Part shown: in pieces, positions 1,522 to 10,939 of the stretch
How positions within the stretch are numbered: position 1 is the stretch's first letter
How the letters are laid out: every line of letters begins with the position of its first letter
Assembly (NCBI RefSeq): GCF_000010065.1
Contig: NC_006576.1
Location: 540,001-572,000, forward strand
Direction: 5' to 3'
Source: Synechococcus elongatus PCC 6301
Lineage (GTDB): Bacteria; Cyanobacteriota; Cyanobacteriia; Synechococcales; Synechococcaceae
DNA: 32,000 nucleotides
The notes under the pieces: generated by a model
What the model was told of the DNA's origin: nothing
Databases searched by the model: none
What the model saw: the letters and a program-made list of their open reading frames with translations, nothing else
Made by a program: the position numbers and the translations under genes

Positions 1522-2070
1522 TTAGTGAAAGCGGACGGTGGCTCGCGGACGGAAGGGGGTTTGCAGTGAGGTGCAGGCATCGATAAAGGCAGCCAAAATG
1601 GTCACCAGCAAAATGAATTCGCGATCGCTGGTGCCAATCGCCACATTGTGCTCATCGAAGACTTGCTCCAGCGGTAGCCAGAGCGGATTTCGGCGAGCAG
1701 CTTGATAGGACTTGGCGAGGCGCTTTTGGTGGCGGGCTTCGCTCAGGTTGGTGTCACTGGCACTGTGGGCAAAGTCATTGCGAACGGCCCGAATGCCATG
1801 CAGGGCTTTCTCGACTGTGGGATCCAGTAAGCCGAGCCGAGCTGCGAGAGTAATCTTGGCGGCAAAGCTGCCCAGGGAGCGATCGGGGGTGAAGAGAACG
1901 TCTTCTTCATCGCCAAGGGGAGCCATGACGGATTGCAACAGGCGTTCGAGGGCCAGATCTAAACGGGCAGCACCAACAAGGACGACACCGCGGCCCCGTT
2001 CGGCCATCATTTGCAAGACCAGAGCTTGTGCGGCGGTCGCCACTTGTGTGGGGTCAAAGTTGGGTGTCAT
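1522..2070 (-). CDS. Hypothetical helical protein, MtlR/DUF4145-like (LGSFAAKITLAARLGLL...IRAVRNDFAHS signature)
   Basis: The ORF track gives 186 aa from a TTG at 2082. The first ATG is at 2070 (MTPNFDP..., 182 aa). The pattern 'LF..(G)pLGSFaaKI.LA..LGLl....l..iR.vRN.FAH' resembles the MtlR / DUF4145 helical families as I remember them. It lies 250 nt downstream of hsdR on the same strand. Confidence 0.55.
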   Translation of the reverse strand: MTPNFDPTQVATAAQALVLQMMAERGRGVVLVGAARLDLALERLLQSVMAPLGDEEDVLFTPDRSLGSFAAKITLAARLGLLDPTVEKALHGIRAVRNDFAHSASDTNLSEARHQKRLAKSYQAARRNPLWLPLEQVFDEHNVAIGTSDREFILLVTILAAFIDACTSLQTPFRPRATVRFH

Positions 2071-2319
2071 GGGCGATCGCAATACTGAGGGTTGTTGGGA
2101 TCACTGGTTGGAATCACTGCAGCCGCAGGGAGAGATCGGAAAAGGGGCGAACAGCCGGTTTTGTGGGGATGATTGCGCACCCCCACGCCCACGCACTGGG
2201 GGACTCGACTCCCCCAGCCCCCCGCAACAAGAAAGATTTCGGATAAGACTGATCGGCTGAATTGCGATCGCTGCGGGTAAAACAAGCTGGTGATGACCTT
2301 TGGTGCGAGGCGCATGGGG

Positions 2320-5300
2320 CTAGGCGGCTTGCGATCGCAGTTCTTCGTAGAGGCCGGTTTGGTTGAGCAGGATGTTTTTGATGCCGTCCTGTACCTGCTT
2401 AGAGTTGAGGGCTTGGCTACTCATGGATTGGTGAGCGTCGAGGGCGCTGATGATCGCTTCGAGCAGTTCTTGGGCAAAGTCGGGGGAGCTCGCAAATTGC
2501 TCTTTACTGTTGGCGATCGCTTGCTGACGCAGGGTGGGGGATTCGAGGAGTTTGCTGCGGAGGACAACGCTGACGTAGTTGACCTTGTCCGCGTCGGTGA
2601 GATCGCCTGTGAATAGTTCGTTCAGTTTGACGATCAGGGCTGAGAGCCAGACTTTCTCTTGGTCTTGGACAACACCTTTGCCGGGTTGGAGGCCGGGGAC
2701 GGGGATGGCTTCGCCCTGTTGGAGATCGAGGCGGCGATCGCCTTGGTGGCGGACTTGGTAGTGAGTCAGGACAACTTTGGAGAGGTCGATGCTGCCGACT
2801 TCGCGCTCAAATTCCAGCAACGGGATCAGGCGACGGAAGACGATCGCGCGTTTTTCGTAAGCGGTGTTGCCGTAGTCGAAGATTTGCGAGAGGAAGGTGT
2901 AAAGACGGACGTAGGTGCCTAGGTCGCTGCGGAACAGGGTGAGGGCGGCGAGTTCGTCTTGGGCGGTTTTGAGGGCGGCAGGGTCGTTTTGGGCTTCGGC
3001 GGTGCGGGCGGCTTGGCGAGCGTTGCGGTATTGATACAGCAAGCGTTCGGCGATCGGTTCTAGGGCTTTTTGCAGATCACTTTGTTTGGCGTTGGGGTTG
3101 AGGACAACTTTGACAACGCGATCGATTTCGTATGCGTCGTAATGCTTCTGAGCATCGAGCTTGAGCCGCAGATCCAAGATCAGGTTGGGATCGGTGGCGC
3201 TGGCGAGTTCAGCGGTGGTGTAGTAGGTCTTGAAGGCGGCCAGAATCTCAGCGGGATCGTTGCTGAAATCGACAATATAAGTGGTGTCTTTGCCGGGATG
3301 GCAGCGGTTGAGGCGCGATAGAGTTTGCACGGCTTGGATGCCCGCAAGACGCCGATCGATGTACATGCCACAGAGCAAGGGTTGGTCGAAGCCGGTTTGG
3401 AATTTGTTGGCGACGATCAGGATTTGGTAGCGATCGCTTTTGAAGGTTTCGCGGATGTCGCCTTGTAAGTTGGGGTTGAGGTTGGGGCTGGTTTCAGTGA
3501 ACGGGTCGGGGCCAGAATCGCGATCGCGGACTTCGCCACTAAAGGCAACAAGGGTGCCGAGACGGTACTGTTTTGCTGCAATGTAGCGATCGATCGCTAG
3601 TTTCCAGCGCACGGCTTCTTTGCGGGAACCGACCACGACCATCGCTTTGGCTTTGCCATTCAGCAGTGGCGCGACGTATTGCTGAAAATGCTCAACCACG
3701 ATCGCGACTTTCTGGGCGATGTTGTGGGGATGCAGCTTGACCCAGCCCATCAGCTTTTTGAGGGCAGCGTTGCGCTCCACTTCTTGATCGCTAAACTGCT
3801 GGCCTGCTTGGGCAAGGCGGAAGGCGACTTTGTAGCTGGTGTAGTTTTGCAGAACATCGAGGATGAAGCCTTCCTCGATCGCTTGCCGCATTGAATAGAC
3901 GTGGAAGGGCATGGGCAGATTATCAGGGCCAGCCGGTCGGTTGGGATCGGGACGTCTGCCGAATAATTCCAGCGTTTTGGCTTTGGGTGTGGCGGTAAAA
4001 GCAACGTAGGTGATGCCGCTTTCGCGGGCACGATCGCTCATTTGGGCCGCAAGGACGGCTTCGAGATCCACTTCGCCGCCGTCGTTGAGATCGGCGAGTT
4101 CGGCAGGAGAAAGCAGTTGTTTGAGTTTGCTGGCGGCTTCGCCGGTTTGAGAACTGTGGGCTTCGTCGGCAATGACAGCAAAGCGTTTACCTTCGGTGGC
4201 GGCCAGTTCGCGTACGGCTTGCAGAGCGAAGGGAAAGGTCTGAATCGTGCAGACAACAATTTTCTTATCGCCCTTGAGGGCTTCGGCAAGTTTGCTGCTT
4301 TTGCTGCCGTCGTCGCGGGTGATGGCAGCAACCACGCCTTTGTGCCGCTCGAAACTTTCGATCGCTTCTTGCAGTTGCGTATCAATGACGTTGCGATCGC
4401 TAACAACGATCACGGAATCGAAGACTTTGCGGTTATCGGCGTCGTGGAGTTCACTAAAGAAATGCGCTGTCCAAGCGATCGAATTGGTTTTGCCAGAACC
4501 GGCGGAATGCTGCACTAAATACTTGTGGCCAGCCCCTTCTTGCAGGACCGCCTCTTGCAGTCGCCGCGTCACGATCAGTTGGTGATAGCGCGGGAAGAGC
4601 AGGCGGGTGATTTGCTGTTTCTTGTTGCGCTCGGTGATGCAATAGCGCCCCAGAATTTCCAGCCAGCTATCGCGTTGCCACACCTCTTGCCAGAGATAAG
4701 CGGTGCGGTGACCACTAGCAGAGCTGACAGGATTCCCCGCGCCACAATCGGGCGCACCTGGATCACTGCCTTGGTTAAAGGGTAGGAAAACAGTAGCAAA
4801 GCCCGCCAGCTTGGTGGTCATTTGCACTTCGCGATTACTGACGGCGAAATGCACGATCGCGCCACTCGGGAAACTCAGCAACGGTTCTGGCGATTGTCCG
4901 GCGGGTTTGGGGTTGCGATCTTGTTTGTATTGATAAACGGCGTCGGCGATGTTTTGGGTGTTATCGGTTTTGAGTTCGACGGTGGCGACGGGAATGCCAT
5001 TCAGGAACAGAACGAGATCAATACAGTTTTGATTGTGGAGGGAATAGCGCACTTGCCGAATGACGCGCAGCCGATTGGCTTCGTAGCGATCGCGAATTTC
5101 GGCATTAGTAGCAAAGGCGGGTTTGAATTGCGCCAGCTTCAGCGATCGCGGCAGTCCGAGGACTTCGAGGCCATAGCGCAACAGATCGAGGGTGCCGACT
5201 TGATCGAGTTGTTGCCGGACTCGTTGCAACAGAATCGCTTCGGCTTGAGTGCCTTGTTTTTGTTGCAGAGTTTCCCAAGCTTCCGGTTGGGTTTGTTGGA

Positions 5301-5439
5301 GCCAAGCAAACAGATCGGGTGGATAAAGCGCTAAAGCGCGATCGTAGTCAGCGGCTGCGCCTTCCTCATAAATCCAGCCTTGCTGGGCGAGGTCTTGGCA
5401 AATTTCTGCTTCAAAAGCACTTTCTAAATGCACAGTCAT
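2320..5439 (-). CDS. hsdR: Type I restriction enzyme, R (endonuclease/translocase) subunit
   Basis: 1039 aa. N-terminal PD-(D/E)XK nuclease motif (IDLVLFLNGIPVATVELK). SF2 helicase motifs: Walker A SAGSGKTNS and DEAH box IADEAHSSQ. Long C-terminal helical region typical of HsdR. The start codon overlaps the hsdS stop in ATGA (5436-5439), implying translational coupling. Confidence 0.95.
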   Translation of the reverse strand: MTVHLESAFEAEICQDLAQQGWIYEEGAAADYDRALALYPPDLFAWLQQTQPEAWETLQQKQGTQAEAILLQRVRQQLDQVGTLDLLRYGLEVLGLPRSLKLAQFKPAFATNAEIRDRYEANRLRVIRQVRYSLHNQNCIDLVLFLNGIPVATVELKTDNTQNIADAVYQYKQDRNPKPAGQSPEPLLSFPSGAIVHFAVSNREVQMTTKLAGFATVFLPFNQGSDPGAPDCGAGNPVSSASGHRTAYLWQEVWQRDSWLEILGRYCITERNKKQQITRLLFPRYHQLIVTRRLQEAVLQEGAGHKYLVQHSAGSGKTNSIAWTAHFFSELHDADNRKVFDSVIVVSDRNVIDTQLQEAIESFERHKGVVAAITRDDGSKSSKLAEALKGDKKIVVCTIQTFPFALQAVRELAATEGKRFAVIADEAHSSQTGEAASKLKQLLSPAELADLNDGGEVDLEAVLAAQMSDRARESGITYVAFTATPKAKTLELFGRRPDPNRPAGPDNLPMPFHVYSMRQAIEEGFILDVLQNYTSYKVAFRLAQAGQQFSDQEVERNAALKKLMGWVKLHPHNIAQKVAIVVEHFQQYVAPLLNGKAKAMVVVGSRKEAVRWKLAIDRYIAAKQYRLGTLVAFSGEVRDRDSGPDPFTETSPNLNPNLQGDIRETFKSDRYQILIVANKFQTGFDQPLLCGMYIDRRLAGIQAVQTLSRLNRCHPGKDTTYIVDFSNDPAEILAAFKTYYTTAELASATDPNLILDLRLKLDAQKHYDAYEIDRVVKVVLNPNAKQSDLQKALEPIAERLLYQYRNARQAARTAEAQNDPAALKTAQDELAALTLFRSDLGTYVRLYTFLSQIFDYGNTAYEKRAIVFRRLIPLLEFEREVGSIDLSKVVLTHYQVRHQGDRRLDLQQGEAIPVPGLQPGKGVVQDQEKVWLSALIVKLNELFTGDLTDADKVNYVSVVLRSKLLESPTLRQQAIANSKEQFASSPDFAQELLEAIISALDAHQSMSSQALNSKQVQDGIKNILLNQTGLYEELRSQAA

Positions 5440-6797
5440 GCGGCCACCTCCGCCAAGCCCCGCACGTCAATTTGTCCGGTCACTGCCGCCGAAATTAATG
5501 CCGATCGCCGCTCTTGCAAAAGAGAAAGAGACTTTGTTGATTCATTCTCAAGTGATGTGATCTCTTCTAGTTGAGAATGAATGTGTTTGACAATTAGAAT
5601 CTGTTCATCTAGTGGAGGCAAAGCAAAAACTGTATCTCGCACAAGCTCTTGGCTAATATTGCCGGCTTTACGAGCACTAACAGCTCGCTCCATCCAAAAA
5701 GGTCTAAGGAACTGAATATATCTAAATGTAAACATTGGAACGGCATAATATGAGGGTAAAAGAGCACATAGCGCTTGATTTATAGCAGCAGGGAAAGTAA
5801 GAATTCCATTTTTTCCTACGGTTCCACCTCCGCCATACAAAGCAACTAGAACAGTATCCACTGGCAAGATTTCACAAGCAGTATCTTGAATAGCTTGATT
5901 TGTGATAGATACTTCAGCAGATCTTACTTCTTGATTTTCGATATCTGTTGTTCTTACCCAAGGAATACCTGAGTCAGAGTCAGCATAATAAAGAGCTTGC
6001 TCTTCAGTATTAGGTGTCCCGCCACTAGAAGTTTTGAAGTAATGCTTAATCTTTCCTGTTTTCCAATGGGCGGGGACTTGGCCGAGCCACTCAATGCCCG
6101 AATCTTTCAGCGGCGCATCGGGGTTGAGTCCTTTGGTGACTGCGTGGGAAATGACCGCTTGGCGTTTTTCTTGCAGCAGCGCAATCAGACGTTGTTGTTC
6201 TGCGATCAGTGCATCAATTTTTGCCGTTTCGCGATCGAGAAAAGATGCGATCGCTATTTGTTCTTCATCACTAGGTACTGGGAGAATAAATGACAAAAAA
6301 TTATCTTGACTAAGGTTTTGCATACTGGAAGAGGTTCCAGAGCAAACCATTTTTACCTGATCTCTATAAATTTGTGTCTGTGTCCAATAGTAAGCAAAGT
6401 TTGGATAGACATTGCTAATTCTTACTTGCCATAAGCGATCAGGCAGAAAAACACAGTCATAATCAACCAAGCTTAAACCAGCAGCACCTACTAAATCAGG
6501 TGTATTCATCCTGCTAACAATAAGTCTTCCAGATTTAACAGGACAAGCAGCTCGGTCAATATCTTCTTGAATAATTTCTTTCCTTTCCTCTGGACGGAAA
6601 GAACCTGTGTAGACACAGCTAGTTTTAAGTACAGATGGAATTCCTTCGTCTGGAGCATGATCAAGAGCATTAACACTGACTCCAGACTCTATTTCTGGTA
6701 TTAGTCGCCGTAGTTGTAATACATTCCAGTGAGAAGGAAGTTTTTCAAGCCATTCAATACCGCAATCTTTGTAAGCCGGATATCGAGGAAAACTCAT
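5436..6797 (-). CDS. hsdS: Type I restriction-modification specificity (S) subunit
   Basis: Two target-recognition domains are separated by a central coiled-coil conserved region (IAIASFLDRETAKIDALIAEQQRLIALLQEKRQAVISHAVTKGL). A matching C-terminal conserved region follows (LLQERRSALISAAVTGQIDVRG). The ORF track starts at a TTG (6827). I prefer the ATG at 6797 (MSFPRYPAYK...), which has GGAGA 9 nt upstream. Confidence 0.9.
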   Translation of the reverse strand: MSFPRYPAYKDCGIEWLEKLPSHWNVLQLRRLIPEIESGVSVNALDHAPDEGIPSVLKTSCVYTGSFRPEERKEIIQEDIDRAACPVKSGRLIVSRMNTPDLVGAAGLSLVDYDCVFLPDRLWQVRISNVYPNFAYYWTQTQIYRDQVKMVCSGTSSSMQNLSQDNFLSFILPVPSDEEQIAIASFLDRETAKIDALIAEQQRLIALLQEKRQAVISHAVTKGLNPDAPLKDSGIEWLGQVPAHWKTGKIKHYFKTSSGGTPNTEEQALYYADSDSGIPWVRTTDIENQEVRSAEVSITNQAIQDTACEILPVDTVLVALYGGGGTVGKNGILTFPAAINQALCALLPSYYAVPMFTFRYIQFLRPFWMERAVSARKAGNISQELVRDTVFALPPLDEQILIVKHIHSQLEEITSLENESTKSLSLLQERRSALISAAVTGQIDVRGLAEVAA

Positions 6798-7061
6798 TCC
6801 AAACTGTCTCCAGCCCAACGCCGTCAATCACAACCACCTCTCTCTGCACACTACAGATTGAAGTCTTGTCCTAGCTTAGCCCTCGCATCCCCGCAGCACC
6901 AAAACCCACAGCGCGATCGGCCTACTTCCCAGCCGCACCAAACAACATTCCCAGCAACTTCCGGCGGCGCTTCCGTCGTTGTCCCTGTTCCGTACTAGAT
7001 TGCGGCGGATCCAGCTTCGTCTGGCTCATCCCTAACCCCCTCCAAACCGCGATCGGGCCAC

Positions 7062-7310
7062 TTACTGCTGATTCAGCCAATCTTCTAAATCTTGAACATC
7101 GGCAAAATCCAACAACGCCTCACATAGATCTTCTAGTTGCTCAAGAGATAGGGCTTGAACTTGCTCCAGTAACTCTGGTGACAGCACCCCACATCGCTTT
7201 GGTAGCAAACGAAGAACAAAAGCCGTTGCCACCTCTAGCCGGCCTTCTTGAAAACCCTGTGCAAAGCCTTCTTTCCGAGCAATGCGTTCAACGCTGGTGA
7301 TGTAAGGCAT
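7062..7310 (-). CDS. Stand-alone DUF4351-like small protein (module A, 82 aa), paralogue of the C-terminal domain of the adjacent Rpn-family nuclease
   Basis: ATG preceded by AGGAG-N6. The protein starts MPYITSVERIARKEG and ends QALSLEQLEDL..LLDF..VQDLEDWLNQQ. It is colinear with residues 242-311 of the 311-aa ORF at 7591-8526. Confidence 0.7.
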   Translation of the reverse strand: MPYITSVERIARKEGFAQGFQEGRLEVATAFVLRLLPKRCGVLSPELLEQVQALSLEQLEDLCEALLDFADVQDLEDWLNQQ

Positions 7311-7323
7311 CGGTTACTCCTGC

Positions 7324-7551
7324 CTACAACTGCTGATTGAGCCAGTCCTCTAAATCTTGAATGCCAGAGAAATCCAACAAGTCATCTGCTAGATTCTCCA
7401 TCTGTTCGAGCGATAGGGCTTGTATCTGCGTCAGCAAAGCAGGTGAGAGCGTGCCACAACGTCGGGTAAGCTGCCGGAGAACTAAAGTATCAGCTTGTTC
7501 CCTCCGGCCTTCCTGTCTGCCAATGCGTTCAATGCTGGTGATGTAAGGCAT
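7324..7551 (-). CDS. Stand-alone DUF4351-like small protein (module B, 75 aa), paralogue of the C-terminal domain of the adjacent Rpn-family nuclease
   Basis: The ORF track starts at a GTG (7581). The ATG at 7551 is preceded by AGGAG-N6 and gives MPYITSIERIGRQEG...DLEDWLNQQL. The 5' end, plus 28 nt upstream, is 60/61 identical to the internal segment 7771-7831 of the upstream nuclease gene. Confidence 0.7.
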   Translation of the reverse strand: MPYITSIERIGRQEGRREQADTLVLRQLTRRCGTLSPALLTQIQALSLEQMENLADDLLDFSGIQDLEDWLNQQL

Positions 7552-7590
7552 CCGGCGCTCCTGCTCATAAGCCGACAGCACTTTCCTCCG

Positions 7591-8526
7591 CTACTGCTGA
7601 CTCAGCCACACCTCCAGATCATCAATCGTTGAGAAATCAAATAATGCTTCTCCCAGTGCTTCCATCTGCTCGATAGACAGCGCTTGTACTTGCGCTAAAA
7701 GACTTGAGGACAGAGTTCCATAGCGCTTCGTCAGTAAACGAAGAACAAAAATCTTCGCTTCCTCCCGCCGGCCAATGCGTTCAATGCTGGTGATGTAAGG
7801 CATTCGGCGCTCCTGCTCATAAGCCGACAGCTCACTCCTGAACTCTAGCTCAAGACCTTCGGGAAGGCTCAAGAGCCAGTCAATGAACTTGAAAAGGCCA
7901 ATAATGCGCTCTCGACTCAGGCCCCGCTCATACAAAAGTTTCAACAACTCCAGCTTCCATCGCTTGCGCAGTTGCCGATCTTGCTTCGTCTGAATCGCCC
8001 GTAAATGCGCAGCCACCGCGATCGCAAACGGATTCTCATCCTCCAAGAGTTGATCAAGGCGATCGAGATAATCCAGCAACTTAACGCTGACAAACTCACT
8101 GAGATCACGACTGCCCCAAAGCGCTGTCTCAAAAGCATTGGGTCGCCACGTCGGTGACTCATCCGCCAAAATCGCCACACTCGCGATCGGCACCGCAAAG
8201 CGATCGAAGATGCGATAGCGATAGACATACATCCGCTCCGCAAAGTTCGATTCCCTCGCGCCCTGCACCTCAATGTGTACCAGCACCCACGCTTCTTGAC
8301 CGGCTTTCGTCCAAACCTTAACGAGCTTGTCCGCATAACGTCGGCCAGTCTCCGCCTCGGCTGTAATCTGCTGGAGCTCCTTATCCAGAAACTCATAGCC
8401 GCGATCCCAATCAATGTCGGGATCCGCGATCGGCAAAAAGAAGCGAATGAACTCTGGGAAGAAAGCCTCAATTAACTCCTTCCACGGTGAATCGCTCTCG
8501 GTAAGGGGCAGCGCAGAATCGGTCAT
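7591..8526 (-). CDS. Rpn/YhgA-like PD-(D/E)XK recombination-promoting nuclease / putative transposase, with a C-terminal DUF4351-like module
   Basis: 311 aa with an ATG start. The N-terminal region has the Rpn/YhgA-type nuclease core signature (YADKLVKVW...AWVLVHIEVQG, i.e. D...hhhE.Q). The C-terminal 70 aa (MPYITSIERIGRRE...DLEVWLSQQ) form the module that is repeated twice downstream. Confidence 0.75.
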   Translation of the reverse strand: MTDSALPLTESDSPWKELIEAFFPEFIRFFLPIADPDIDWDRGYEFLDKELQQITAEAETGRRYADKLVKVWTKAGQEAWVLVHIEVQGARESNFAERMYVYRYRIFDRFAVPIASVAILADESPTWRPNAFETALWGSRDLSEFVSVKLLDYLDRLDQLLEDENPFAIAVAAHLRAIQTKQDRQLRKRWKLELLKLLYERGLSRERIIGLFKFIDWLLSLPEGLELEFRSELSAYEQERRMPYITSIERIGRREEAKIFVLRLLTKRYGTLSSSLLAQVQALSIEQMEALGEALFDFSTIDDLEVWLSQQ

Positions 8527-8529
8527 GCT

Positions 8530-8730
8530 TCATTCCTTGCGATCGCTCCAATAGCGGTCATCTTCCAACTCCTTACCTGAGAGCATCCGCAGCTCCCCAT
8601 CAATCACAACGGAAAGCCCAGTCCCTGTTTGTCGTGCCAATTCCCGTGCTCGCTGTGCCGCCCGCAATAAAGCAGGCATTACTTTTTGCATATCTGAATC
8701 ATGATCTTGAGATTGCGACTCTTGGGTCAT
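8530..8730 (-). CDS. Small hypothetical protein (66 aa), tightly coupled to the Rpn-like gene
   Basis: ATG preceded by GAGGAAG. Its stop is 3 nt from the Rpn ATG, and AAGGAA lies inside its 3' end. Acidic N- and C-termini flank a central Ala/Arg-rich helix (ALLRAAQRARELARQTGTGLSVVIDG). No family recognised. Confidence 0.5.
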   Translation of the reverse strand: MTQESQSQDHDSDMQKVMPALLRAAQRARELARQTGTGLSVVIDGELRMLSGKELEDDRYWSDRKE

Positions 8731-8751
8731 GACTAACTTCCTCTCTTGTCT

Positions 8752-10779
8752 TTAGTGAGATAAGCCCCCGAGCATTGTCAGAATGCGATCGGTGACTTGC
8801 TGTAACTCCGCATCAATTTCCTCCAGCGATCGCGGTGGCGTAAACACATAAAAATGCCGGTTAAAGGGAATCTCGTAACCGACTTTGGTTTTCTCTGGGT
8901 CGATCCAAGCATCCGGCACATGCGGCAACACTTCTCGCTGGAAATAGGTGTCTACATCCTCAGTTAGCGGCACATTCTCGGTATCCCGTAAGCTGGCATC
9001 CGCCACAGGCTGCCCCTTAGTCTTGCCCCGCTGCGCCAGTACGACATTCCCCGCCTCATCTCGCTGCGGACGCTCCACTGTAATCGTGCGATAGCCAAAC
9101 TCTTCATTGCGAAAGATTTTGCTAACGGGTTTCCCATCGCGATCGGCTTCCTCAAAGTTGCCGAACAACCGCGTAATCTCCGCAATCTGCTCCTCGCTCA
9201 GTTCCTTGCGCTTACTGCCCAAACTCTTGCGCATCTTCTGCCAAAAACCACTGGCATCAATTAGCTGAACTTTGCCTTTGCGGCTTGCAGGCTTCCGGTT
9301 ACTCAGAATCCAGATATAGGTGCTGATACCTGTGTTGTAGAACATGTCCGTGGGCAAAGCGATAATCGCCTCGACCAGATCGTTTTCAAGGACATAGCGG
9401 CGAATCTCGCTCTCGCCAGACCCAGCCCCGCCGGTAAATAACGGTGATCCATTCAGCACAATCCCCAGACGGCTGCCGCCTTCACTAGCAGGTCGCATCT
9501 TCGAGATCAGATGCAGGAGAAAGAGCAACGAGCCATCACTGACGCGAGGTAAGCCAGGACCAAAACGACCGCTGTAGCCCAACTGTTCAGCTTCTCGCTG
9601 GACTTCCTTCTGAATCTTTTTCCACTCGACGCCGAAGGGAGGATTCGACAGCATGTAGTCGTACTTGGCATCGGGCAACTTGTCATCGGAGAGCGTGTTG
9701 CCAAAGCAAATATTCTGGATGTTTTGTCCCTTGATCAGCATGTCGGCTTTGCAGATCGCATAGGACTCTGGGTTCAATTCCTGCCCCGACAGCACCAATC
9801 GCGCCGAAGGATTCAGCTCCGTTAGATGTTCCTCGGCCACACTGAGCATGCCGCCCGTGCCTGCAGTGGGGTCATACAGACTGCGGACAATTCCAGGCTG
9901 AGTCAGCGCGGCATCATCCTCAATAAAGAGCAAATTGACCATCAGCCGAATCACTTCGCGGGGCGTGAAGTGTTCCCCAGCCGTTTCATTCGAGAGTTCG
10001 GCAAATTTGCGAATCAGCTCCTCAAATACCAAACCCATCTCGGCATTGCTAACCGTATCGGGATGGAGGTCGATCTGCGCAAAGCGTTCAGTGACAAGGT
10101 AAAGCAGACCCGCTTTTTCGAGGCGATCGATTTGTAGATGAAACTCAAAGCTATCGAAAATGTCCCGCACTGCTGGCGTGAAGCCTTGGATATAAGCACG
10201 CAGGTTCTCGCCAATGTTGTCGGCATCACCCATCAGCTGCTTGAGATCGAGCGGTGAGGTATTGCAGAAGTTCTGCCCTGCTTTCTTCAGCAAGAACGGT
10301 TCTGGAGCTAAGCCTTGGCTTTCGCGTAGGACTTTCTCTTCAAGAACAGCGGCTTTCGTCGGGGCAAGCACACAGTCCAAGCGCCGCAGCACCGTAAACG
10401 GCAGGATGATTTTGCCGTAGTCACTCTGTTTGTAGTCGCCGCGCAGCAGGTCAGCCACACTCCAAATGAAGGCCGAGAGATTCTGGCGTCCAGTCGGTTG
10501 CGGTTCTAGAGGAGCGGCCATTGGGAGGTCTGGTGGCGTAGCGATCGCAATTCCCTGACTATCCATCAACGTCACAGACCCGCCGCGTCCCCGTCCTGAT
10601 TGAATCCGGCCTTGCAGCATCAGTTCTGCTTTGACCGACTCGTAGCGAGCATCATCCCACGCCAACAACTGTTGCAGCTTGCTATTCCCCGCTGAGCCAC
10701 CGAGGGCTTGAAGCACCCCGAGGAACTCAGCTTGAAGACTGCTGATTTCGGTCGTTGATTGGGAGGATTCAAACGTCAT
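8752..10779 (-). CDS. hsdM: Type I restriction-modification DNA methyltransferase (M) subunit, with a roughly 100-aa N-terminal extension
   Basis: HsdM_N-like segment ([35 protein letters not shown]). AdoMet motif [10 protein letters not shown] and catalytic motif NPPFG. The ORF track extends to 10911, but that extension begins in the terminator T-tract of the upstream gene. I use the ATG at 10779 (MTFESSQ..., 675 aa). Confidence 0.92.
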
Positions 10780-10909
10780 AGCAAGCGGGTTGAGAGGGTT
10801 AAGTAAGGCCAATGAAGTCTGTTGTATTGTCTTTGATTTGGGATGTTCTGGCCGCCCAAGAGACTGGTGCCGGCCGACGCACCCATCGTCTTTTGACCTC
10901 GTCCAGCAC

Positions 10910-10939
10910 AAAAAAACCGGAGTCCCCTAGAGGCTCCGG
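10910..10939 (-). terminator. Rho-independent terminator downstream of the DUF1517 gene
   Basis: Minus-strand RNA: CCGGAGCCUC-UA-GGGGACUCCGG hairpin (about 10 bp with one bulge) followed by U7. It starts 31 nt after the stop at 10971. Confidence 0.75.

Follow-up and report, generated by a model that had tools for sequence, protein, structure and literature searches.

A predicted RpnL/RpnS-type module in a type I restriction-modification operon

We analysed a 32,000-nucleotide (nt) stretch of Synechococcus elongatus PCC 6301 (NC_006576.1, positions 540,001 to 572,000; hereafter the window, whose positions are used for all coordinates), which carries a type I restriction-modification (R-M) operon with additional genes between hsdM and hsdS. 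We consider it likely that these include a self-contained RpnL/RpnS-type module, carried as accessory cargo in a type I R-M island that was gained by horizontal transfer and whose hsdM-hsdS slot is variable. Scans with Pfam, NCBIfam and PADLOC models and reading of the minus strand gave the order hsdM, an open reading frame (ORF) of 66 amino acids (aa), a 311-aa nuclease gene, two DUF4351 genes, a 35-aa ORF, hsdS, hsdR and a 186-aa ORF (Table 1). The first-pass annotation had placed the 66-aa ORF, the nuclease and two DUF4351 ORFs between hsdM and hsdS and had described all genes from hsdM to hsdR as co-directional; gene coordinates and Pfam matches confirmed the former, and the genes do lie on the minus strand throughout. 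Entries ABB57090-ABB57093, BAD78675-BAD78678 and AJD58389-AJD58393 (S. elongatus PCC 7942, PCC 6301 and UTEX 2973) have the same sequences as the proteins of the block.

In the explanation that we favour, the 311-aa protein would be a DNA nuclease toxin whose N-terminal PD-(D/E)XK domain has the core D66...E86-x-Q88 and whose C-terminal DUF4351 domain serves oligomerisation. By homology to Escherichia coli Rpn, an internal AGGAG-N6-ATG in this gene would also give rise to a 70-aa RpnS, and this RpnS would bind the C-terminal domain of the full-length nuclease, which would stay inactive until infection or another cue. The two small DUF4351 genes, which we call modules B and C, would be stand-alone RpnS paralogues acting as extra or alternative antitoxins. 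They may also act as recombination partners, because each module begins with the same 61-nt junction, so that the C-terminal domain of the nuclease could be swapped or deleted. The module would share a transcript with hsdM, hsdS and hsdR that starts at the hsdM promoter, and would form a second defence layer beside the restriction enzyme that is not under R-M control. Our data show the order of the genes, their domains, the conserved signal for an internal start, the shuffling of modules between strains, the diverse cargo of orthologous operons and the absence of a general link between Rpn and R-M, whereas toxicity, antitoxin action, the anti-phage role and co-transcription are points that we infer.

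Three aspects are new here, if modestly so: a cyanobacterial Rpn subfamily with family-wide evidence of an internal start, an Rpn instance embedded in a type I operon, and strain-level evidence of C-terminal module exchange at a conserved junction. More than 2600 (>2600) homologues that are labelled 'DUF4351 domain-containing protein' or 'putative transposase' become predicted RpnL/RpnS-type toxin-antitoxin nucleases. S. elongatus PCC 7942 is tractable (natural transformation, known cyanophages) and therefore convenient for Rpn biology outside enterobacteria, and the locus suits asking what role spare RpnS copies have and whether R-M embedding means anything functionally. By itself, the locus reveals no new defence principle.

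The 311-aa protein fits a distant Rpn/YhgA-like nuclease

Zhong et al. (2023, PMC10400941) showed that E. coli Rpn are toxin-antitoxin systems: the full-length PD-(D/E)XK nuclease, RpnL, is inhibited by RpnS, which corresponds to its C-terminal domain, and DUF4351 is the domain of this antitoxin. In the 311-aa protein, residues 252-308 near the C-terminus matched DUF4351 (PF14261) with an E-value of 3.9e-23, and the homologues that we aligned with it matched DUF4351 as well (22/22). Residues D66, H84, E86 and Q88 were invariant across this 22-homologue alignment. When hhalign was run against a single E. coli RpnA sequence, the D...ExQ core fell on the SD...IEHQ of RpnA (E-value of 0.018). In the AlphaFold model of the protein (predicted local distance difference test score, pLDDT, of 85.9), an alpha/beta core gives way to helices at the C-terminus, and the best Foldseek matches of this model in the PDB were mostly PD-(D/E)XK nuclease-containing proteins, among them Cap4, CinB, NucS/EndoMS, McrBC and type II enzymes. 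Transposase_31 (PF04754), the YhgA-like family of Pfam, gave the sole N-terminal match among the family members and was found in 8/22 homologues, at best with an E-value of 8.7e-6.

A number of these scores weigh against the assignment. The 311-aa protein itself matched Transposase_31 over its catalytic core with an E-value of only 0.0046 (17 bits, with a cut-off of 21), the hhalign probability against the single RpnA sequence was just 2.5%, and all Foldseek matches of the model had an E-value above 0.01 (E > 0.01). Neither an NCBIfam model (TIGR01784) nor a PADLOC model matched the protein, and the family profile found nothing at E <= 10 when searched by sequence against all PDB chains. Compared with E. 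coli RpnA, the N-terminal domain of the S. elongatus protein is distant and its similarity is limited to the catalytic core. Because the Transposase_31, hhalign and Foldseek scores are all weak, we describe the protein as distantly Rpn-like and not as a threshold-level member of the family. On the sequence and model evidence taken together, it fits a distant Rpn/YhgA-like PD-(D/E)XK nuclease. The earlier designation as an Rpn/YhgA-like nuclease holds with one reservation, the weakness of the Transposase_31 match.

A search with the 311-aa protein returned 2610 homologues, mainly cyanobacterial 'DUF4351 domain-containing' proteins, some of which are labelled 'Rpn family recombination-promoting nuclease' (P0058) or 'TIGR01784 family' (P0050). 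Exact-sequence look-up of the homologues P0003 and P0122 found no contigs. Three homologues of the 22-sequence alignment (P0014, P0034 and P0040) have two DUF4351 domains fused in tandem in one protein, so the module is duplicated in frame as well.

A predicted internal start and two stand-alone DUF4351 genes

RpnS is made in E. coli either from an internal start or from separate downstream DUF4351 genes, namely ypaA/rpnESs after rpnE, and rpnCSs (PMC10400941). A sequence-level signature of such an internal start, predicted to produce a separate C-terminal domain, is present across the family of the 311-aa protein. In the window, an AGGAG at 7810-7814 lies six nt 5' of an in-frame ATG (7803), and the corresponding Met242 is invariant in the 22 homologues. 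The same AGGAG-N6-ATG stands ahead of all three DUF4351 modules, that is, the C-terminal domain of the nuclease (module A) and modules B and C. Among family loci of other genomes, a Shine-Dalgarno (SD) core was found at positions -18..-5 of the internal ATG in 69/69, versus 10% at control positions. Glu codons 5' of the internal ATG were GAG in 83% of cases, versus 27% elsewhere in the same genes (Fisher p = 5e-42). This is nucleotide conservation on top of protein conservation, the pattern that a conserved internal ribosome-binding site predicts. Weighing against this evidence, the SD and codon counts were taken from relatives that are not phylogenetically independent, many of them Nostocales, so the p-value overstates their independence.

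Judged by its sequence, each of the two small genes is a copy of RpnS that stands by itself, and such copies are known from E. coli. Module B has been annotated both as a 75-aa protein (ABB57092.1) and as an 85-aa protein (BAD78676.1). A stand-alone DUF4351 ORF was found just 3' of the nuclease gene in 6/80 other family loci. The three modules of the window have diverged from each other, with identities of 65% for A-B, 59% for A-C and 63% for B-C. They also differ in their four-residue repeats, of which module A has one unit (RREE), module B two (RQEG-RREQ) and module C four (RKEG-FAQG-FQEG-RLEV), and homologues hold up to five or more such units (e.g., P0008). The long helix of the E. coli proteins likewise holds a varying number of four-residue repeats, which tunes how RpnL pairs with RpnS (PMC10400941). 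Modules B and C may not neutralise the 311-aa nuclease, which weighs against their proposed role as antitoxins, since they are 59-65% identical to its own C-terminal domain and differ from it in repeat number, and differences of this kind weaken pairing in E. coli.

At the level of sequence, the likeness to the E. coli RpnL/RpnS systems (RpnA-E, RpnP2; rpnE-ypaA) comprises a predicted PD-(D/E)XK nuclease with a variable C-terminal domain, an internal SD and ATG from which this domain would be made separately, downstream DUF4351 copies, variable repeats and proximity to other defence genes (for the E. coli side, PMC10400941). E. coli rpn genes cluster with defence genes, and a plasmid-borne Rpn protects against T-even phages (PMC10400941). 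Differences from E. coli are that S. elongatus has two downstream copies and that these are diverged (59-65%), whereas the E. coli copies cluster with their upstream partner. A further difference is the location of the S. elongatus module inside a type I R-M operon.

C-terminal modules are exchanged between S. elongatus strains

We compared the window, which represents the PCC 7942 type, with the finished genomes CP033061.1 (L167) and CP168031.1 (L166, PCC 11801-type). The embedding of Rpn in the R-M operon is confined to the S. elongatus complex, where the island occupies two chromosomal sites (Table 1). Because homology between the window and L166 spans window positions 1529-10781, the whole unit including the Rpn block is one island. 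Nor is the block a chance arrangement: variants of it occur in three genomes of the S. elongatus complex.

The islands are ~80% identical in DNA and the N-terminal domains of their nucleases are 92-99% identical between strains, whereas the C-terminal modules of different types share just 42-73% identity. The PCC 7942 nuclease carries a type A module and is followed by stand-alone B and C modules. The L167 nuclease ends in a type B domain with one RQEG unit more (present twice versus once in the downstream copy); behind it comes a second B, whose B-type core is framed by module C flanks. All three modules of L166 are of other types. Aligning the window with L167 revealed a clean ~240-nt indel of one module that is bounded by the 61-nt direct repeat (Table 1). 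On this sequence evidence, the 61-nt repeat is the junction where C-terminal modules are exchanged or deleted.

These observations also bear on a more far-reaching explanation, which extends the self-contained module and does not exclude it. The stand-alone DUF4351 genes might be a reservoir of donor cassettes that re-programme the C-terminus of the nuclease, together with the matching RpnS, at the 61-nt junction, with variation driven by phage counter-defence and perhaps promoted by Rpn itself. Zhong et al. (PMC10400941) suggest that RpnL may initiate such recombination. The same junction opens each module (60/61 nt are shared by the first two), the window has exactly one module more than L167 and has it at the junction, and the B-type domain of the L167 nuclease has a gene to itself in PCC 7942. 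The C flanks around the B-type core in the downstream copy of L167 suggest gene conversion, and Logan contigs (see below) show the deletion expected from repeat recombination. The comparison, however, comprises three genomes only and contains neither the rate nor the direction of events, and the Logan variant may be an assembly artefact. Moreover, all stand-alone copies keep SD and ATG, which argues for expressed proteins and not for silent cassettes. We consider such a reservoir rather unlikely.

The four Logan short-read contigs L001-L004 are otherwise 99.97% identical to the window and lack precisely one module of 252 nt, located at the 61-nt repeat, which possibly reflects a real deletion in laboratory stocks or a loop collapse in the de Bruijn graph. 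The repeat holds a 33-nt exact run, longer than the Logan k-mer of ~31. A collapse during assembly is conceivable because the correct 311-aa form is recorded from NCBI-type sources only and not from Logan. Considering the possible collapse at the 33-nt exact repeat, we dropped L001-L004 as a clean natural deletion variant and built the case for module exchange on the finished genomes L166 and L167, not on Logan contigs. The discrepancy is a warning for users of such assemblies at tandem modules.

Rpn is not a general cargo of type I operons

Type I operons are well known to carry embedded cargo, a pattern termed 'guilt by embedding' (Payne et al. 2024), and one example is DarTG2 in a type I system of enteropathogenic E. 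coli (EPEC; PMC12255303). We examined the association of Rpn with R-M genes from both sides, searching by phmmer with single query sequences. On the R-M side, we collected 80 metagenomic loci with HsdM proteins 72-87% identical to that of the window. More than 300 nt (>300 nt) separated hsdM from hsdS in 25/67 of these orthologous operons and hsdS from hsdR in 29/46. The cargo in the hsdM-hsdS slot of the 25/67 was of other toxin-antitoxin, Abi or nuclease types. Together, the gaps held 35 Pfam families. They included PIN, Zeta_toxin, ParE with antitoxin, Phd/YefM, YhcG/DUF1016, PDDEXK_4, Abi_2, AbiEii and RhuM, as well as Bro-N, GmrSD, KAP NTPase, dCMP deaminase, IrrE with DUF4411, DUF4357, DUF4268 and SLFN/AlbA_2. 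Rpn or DUF4351 was found in none of the 80 loci, with 0/67 among the orthologous operons.

On the Rpn side, we examined 80 loci of other genomes whose protein is 45-56% identical to the 311-aa protein. An HsdM-like ORF was found within 10 kilobases (kb) in just 2/80 of these loci, and neither hsdS nor hsdR was detectable near any of them with the window proteins as queries (0/80). A census of the immediate neighbours of Rpn-family genes yielded 167 Pfam families, with no R-M family in the commonest 25. The nearest homologues outside S. elongatus lie in a glycosyltransferase cluster or beside other unrelated genes, and the Rpn paralogues on S. elongatus plasmids are remote from any R-M system. 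Among the genes directly beside Rpn-DUF4351 genes in L006-L085, Uma2 'putative restriction endonuclease' genes were the most frequent (7/131, plus one in L170). Uma2 is another abundant cyanobacterial PD-(D/E)XK family.

Read most simply, these counts describe an hsdM-hsdS slot that is a hotspot for cargo, with Rpn as what one island lineage happens to carry. The first-pass annotation had asked whether Rpn and DUF4351 genes are enriched in type I R-M loci between hsdM and hsdS or hsdR. Outside the S. elongatus complex the answer goes against its proposal (0/67), while the linkage is conserved inside the complex. In each of the three genomes of the complex, Rpn is found within the R-M operon, which could reflect a functional coupling beyond the reach of our sampling and speaks against a plain cargo. 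Still, co-inheritance of the island explains the conserved linkage as well as functional coupling does.

One form of such coupling is the PrrC-like guard that had been proposed for the block. The likeness is that a gene for a toxic nuclease, a predicted one in S. elongatus, lies between type I subunit genes (hsdM-hsdS-prrC-hsdR in the case of PrrC) and is probably co-transcribed with them. Contact with the complex of HsdM, HsdS and HsdR would keep the nuclease inactive, and it would fire once the R-M system is put out of action by an anti-restriction protein of a phage. The precedent of PrrC and other guards is well established; the block is embedded with short gaps and no internal terminator, and it stays in the R-M island in three S. 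elongatus-complex genomes and at two chromosomal sites. Because the linkage is conserved within S. elongatus, we put the probability of a guard above zero. Of the comparison with PrrC, however, position alone matches. PrrC comes without an antitoxin, relies on EcoprrI to stay latent and occurs almost exclusively in type I systems (Payne et al. 2024). Rpn, in contrast, occurs in 0/67 orthologous operons, and its family is not tied to R-M (2/80 loci with an HsdM-like ORF and no R-M family in the top 25 neighbours).

The two nucleases also differ in kind. PrrC combines an ABC-ATPase with a tRNA anticodon nuclease, and neither an ABC-ATPase nor an anticodon-nuclease domain was found here with Pfam, NCBIfam and PADLOC. 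The S. elongatus nuclease is predicted to be of the PD-(D/E)XK DNA-nuclease type, lies between hsdM and hsdS, and belongs to a family that is almost never found beside R-M genes. Its module holds an antitoxin domain of its own in three copies, and because the module brings this domain, an R-M partner would be needless for latency. In addition, the S. elongatus cases come from one island lineage and thus represent a single event. A PrrC-like guard seems quite unlikely to us. A coupled two-layer system, in which the nuclease is wired to R-M, being released for example upon blocked restriction, and/or RpnS cassettes are switched at the 61-nt junction in a phase-variation-like manner that changes the C-terminal domain of the nuclease and with it the antitoxin specificity, likewise strikes us as rather improbable.

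The self-contained module agrees better with other embedded type I cargo, in that a toxin-antitoxin or defence module occupies an inter-subunit slot that is a hotspot of interchangeable cargo (25/67 and 29/46 here). DarTG2 differs in lying between hsdS and hsdR with a dedicated repressor, RptR, and no such regulator was seen in the S. elongatus block. We found no report of Rpn or DUF4351 cargo in a type I slot, and neither turned up in a term search of Payne et al. (2024). A related arrangement is the E. coli immigration control region, where brnAT, symER and rpn accompany type I hsd families (EcoSal Plus review, PMC12707154). As in that region, rpn and type I genes share one defence island in S. 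elongatus, and the PCC 11801-type island also has BrnA. The review (PMC12707154) has rpn alongside the hsd genes, in contrast, and does not describe it between subunit genes. The BrnA-antitoxin gene of L166 (10763-11092) stands behind the Rpn modules and ahead of hsdS, and no gene beside it was called as a BrnT toxin; it echoes the brnAT/rpn/type I association of the immigration control region.

Operon layout, composition and R-M genes

Table 1. Positions of features in the window, and gene orders of the two islands compared with it
Feature	Position	Strand	Remarks
Terminator-like hairpin with U7 run	~10911..10939	-	Behind the upstream DUF1517 gene; seen by eye only
hsdM, methyltransferase subunit, 675 aa from ATG	8752..10779	-	HsdM_N 4.6e-27, N6_Mtase 8.2e-59
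66-aa ORF	8530..8730	-	Core ALLRAAQRARE..T..VV.DG; small conserved family
RpnL-like gene, 311 aa	7591..8526	-	Predicted PD-(D/E)XK N-terminus, helical linker, C-terminal DUF4351 (module A)
61-nt direct repeat, copy 1	7771..7831	-	60/61 identical to copy 2; encodes LSAYEQERRMPYITSIERIG, SD and ATG
Predicted internal RpnS-type ORF, 70 aa	7591..7803	-	MPYITSIERIG start; in frame inside the RpnL-like gene
61-nt direct repeat, copy 2	7519..7579	-	Head of module B
Module B, stand-alone DUF4351/RpnS-like, 75 aa	7324..7551	-	DUF4351 1.9e-24; 85-aa version from GTG 7581
Module C, stand-alone DUF4351/RpnS-like, 82 aa	7062..7310	-	DUF4351 4.6e-24
35-aa ORF (MSQTKLDPPQSSTEQGQRRKRRRKLLGMLFGAAGK)	6922..7029	-	GGAGG nine nt upstream
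hsdS, specificity subunit, 453 aa from ATG	5436..6797 (alternative start 6827)	-	Methylase_S, two stretches
hsdR, restriction subunit, 1039 aa	2320..5439	-	HSDR_N, SWI2_SNF2, ResIII, T1R_D3-like; 4-nt overlap with hsdS
186-aa ORF	1522..2082	-	Last gene of the shared island; within the window-L166 homology span
L167 (CP033061.1)	Same site		hsdM, 66-aa ORF, Rpn 320 aa, one DUF4351 gene, 35-aa ORF, hsdS, hsdR, 182-aa ORF
L166 (CP168031.1)	Other site		hsdM, Rpn 316 aa, two DUF4351 genes, 35-aa ORF, BrnA antitoxin gene, hsdS, hsdR, 182-aa ORF

The intergenic distances from hsdM through the 186-aa ORF are 21, 3, 39, 13, 32, 124, -4 and 237 nt. Inside the block, the gaps (21, 3, 39 and 13 nt) are as tiny as first described, but the last DUF4351 gene lies 234-264 nt ahead of hsdS, with the initially missed 35-aa ORF in between. 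A scan for internal terminators returned 11 terminator-like sites versus 10.9 expected by chance, none of them convincing in the locus, in agreement with the initial view that no obvious terminator interrupts it. Promoter and terminator scans found nothing above chance within the locus, and an Rfam scan of the entire window found no RNA family. Since the layout has gaps of <=124 nt when the 35-aa ORF is counted and no internal terminator beyond chance, the block probably belongs to a transcript that runs from the hsdM promoter through hsdM, hsdS and hsdR.

Upstream of hsdM, the hairpin at ~10911-10939 reads CCGGAGCC-UCUA-GGGGACUCCGG-UUUUUUU and would mark the 5' limit of the R-M transcription unit. 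It had been called a strong terminator. The hairpin and U7 run are indeed there, but a consensus terminator scan of the window did not list it, and a fold of the 56 nt around it showed no extra stability against shuffles (z = -0.63).

The block was also said to have host-like composition and HIP1 sites, which holds only in part. Its guanine-cytosine (GC) content is 0.47-0.53, versus 0.556 and 0.596 in the two flanks. Two exact HIP1 sites are present in 1.67 kb, but their density of ~1.2 per kb is under the 2.7 per kb of the upstream flank. The block has probably been resident in the operon for a long time. An earlier study classed a type I R-M gene of S. elongatus PCC 7942 as a xenologue, and this statement was all that turned up in the literature on the Synpcc7942 locus tags.

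GC content and HIP1 density under the host level would also agree with a decaying selfish insertion, that is, a partly duplicated and possibly inactive remnant of an Rpn 'putative transposase' that came to lie in the operon and has no function today, with the small ORFs as duplication debris; the family has long been annotated as transposase, and S. elongatus has truncated (P0007, 242 aa; P0021, 224 aa) and frameshifted (P0033) paralogues, but we hold this to be very unlikely given that the catalytic residues are all intact, that 5/5 stand-alone modules in the three genomes are intact ORFs with SD and ATG, that the N-terminal domains are 92-99% identical though the islands are ~80% identical in DNA, and that Zhong et al. 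(PMC10400941) saw no evidence of transposition. A transposon-like insertion was ruled out, with neither terminal inverted repeats nor target duplications around the block.

The type I R-M system is intact, with three subunits that carry their signature domains in Pfam and PADLOC. HsdM is identical to ABB57090.1, matched the PADLOC model MTase_I (5.8e-274) and has the NPPF motif. HsdS matched Specificity_I (6.8e-113) and HsdR carries a DEAH motif. The GC content of hsdS (5436-6827) is 0.43, far under that of the rest of the island. Between strains, the central conserved region of hsdS alone aligns (86-92% identity), which fits swapping of target-recognition domains.

Small ORFs of the island

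The 66-aa ORF, which had been counted as part of the nuclease block, is separate cargo and does not belong to the nuclease module. The L166 island has Rpn yet lacks this ORF, and its homologues occur with a Zeta-toxin-type gene. It had no match in Pfam, NCBIfam or PADLOC, and we found 11 homologues. Seven orthologous R-M operons contain one (L091, L095, L097, L100, L108, L099 and L107), and in the first five of these it lies directly 3' of a P-loop gene that follows hsdM. This P-loop gene encodes ~165-175 aa, and the one copy that was scanned (L095) is Zeta_toxin/AAA_33 (Zeta_toxin 1.2e-8). Together, the P-loop/Zeta-type gene and the 66-aa homologue resemble an as yet undescribed pair of cargo genes. 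The small 66-aa-type domain of L099 runs in frame into nucleotidyltransferase-like sequence. The window has no adjacent Zeta_toxin/AAA_33 gene, and hsdM ends 21 nt ahead of the 66-aa ORF. From its sequence relatives, the ORF might, with low confidence, be the orphaned antitoxin-like partner of a lost Zeta-toxin cargo module. We rejected it as a partner or regulator of Rpn, given its absence from the 80 other family loci and the L166 island and the position of its homologues behind Zeta-toxin-type genes.

The 35-aa ORF was found in S. elongatus loci only. Its frame and an RRKRRR-LLGxLFGxAGK core are kept in PCC 7942, L167 (~10230-10340) and L166 (~10480-10590), and the DNA around it is just ~71% identical in L166. 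The core is basic plus hydrophobic, and the ORF has a strong SD, is without annotation and was not called in Logan loci.

The 186-aa ORF lies directly 3' of hsdR and has counterparts of 182 aa in L166 (16197-16745) and L167 (15155-15703). A weak DUF4145 match was recorded for the L167 copy only.

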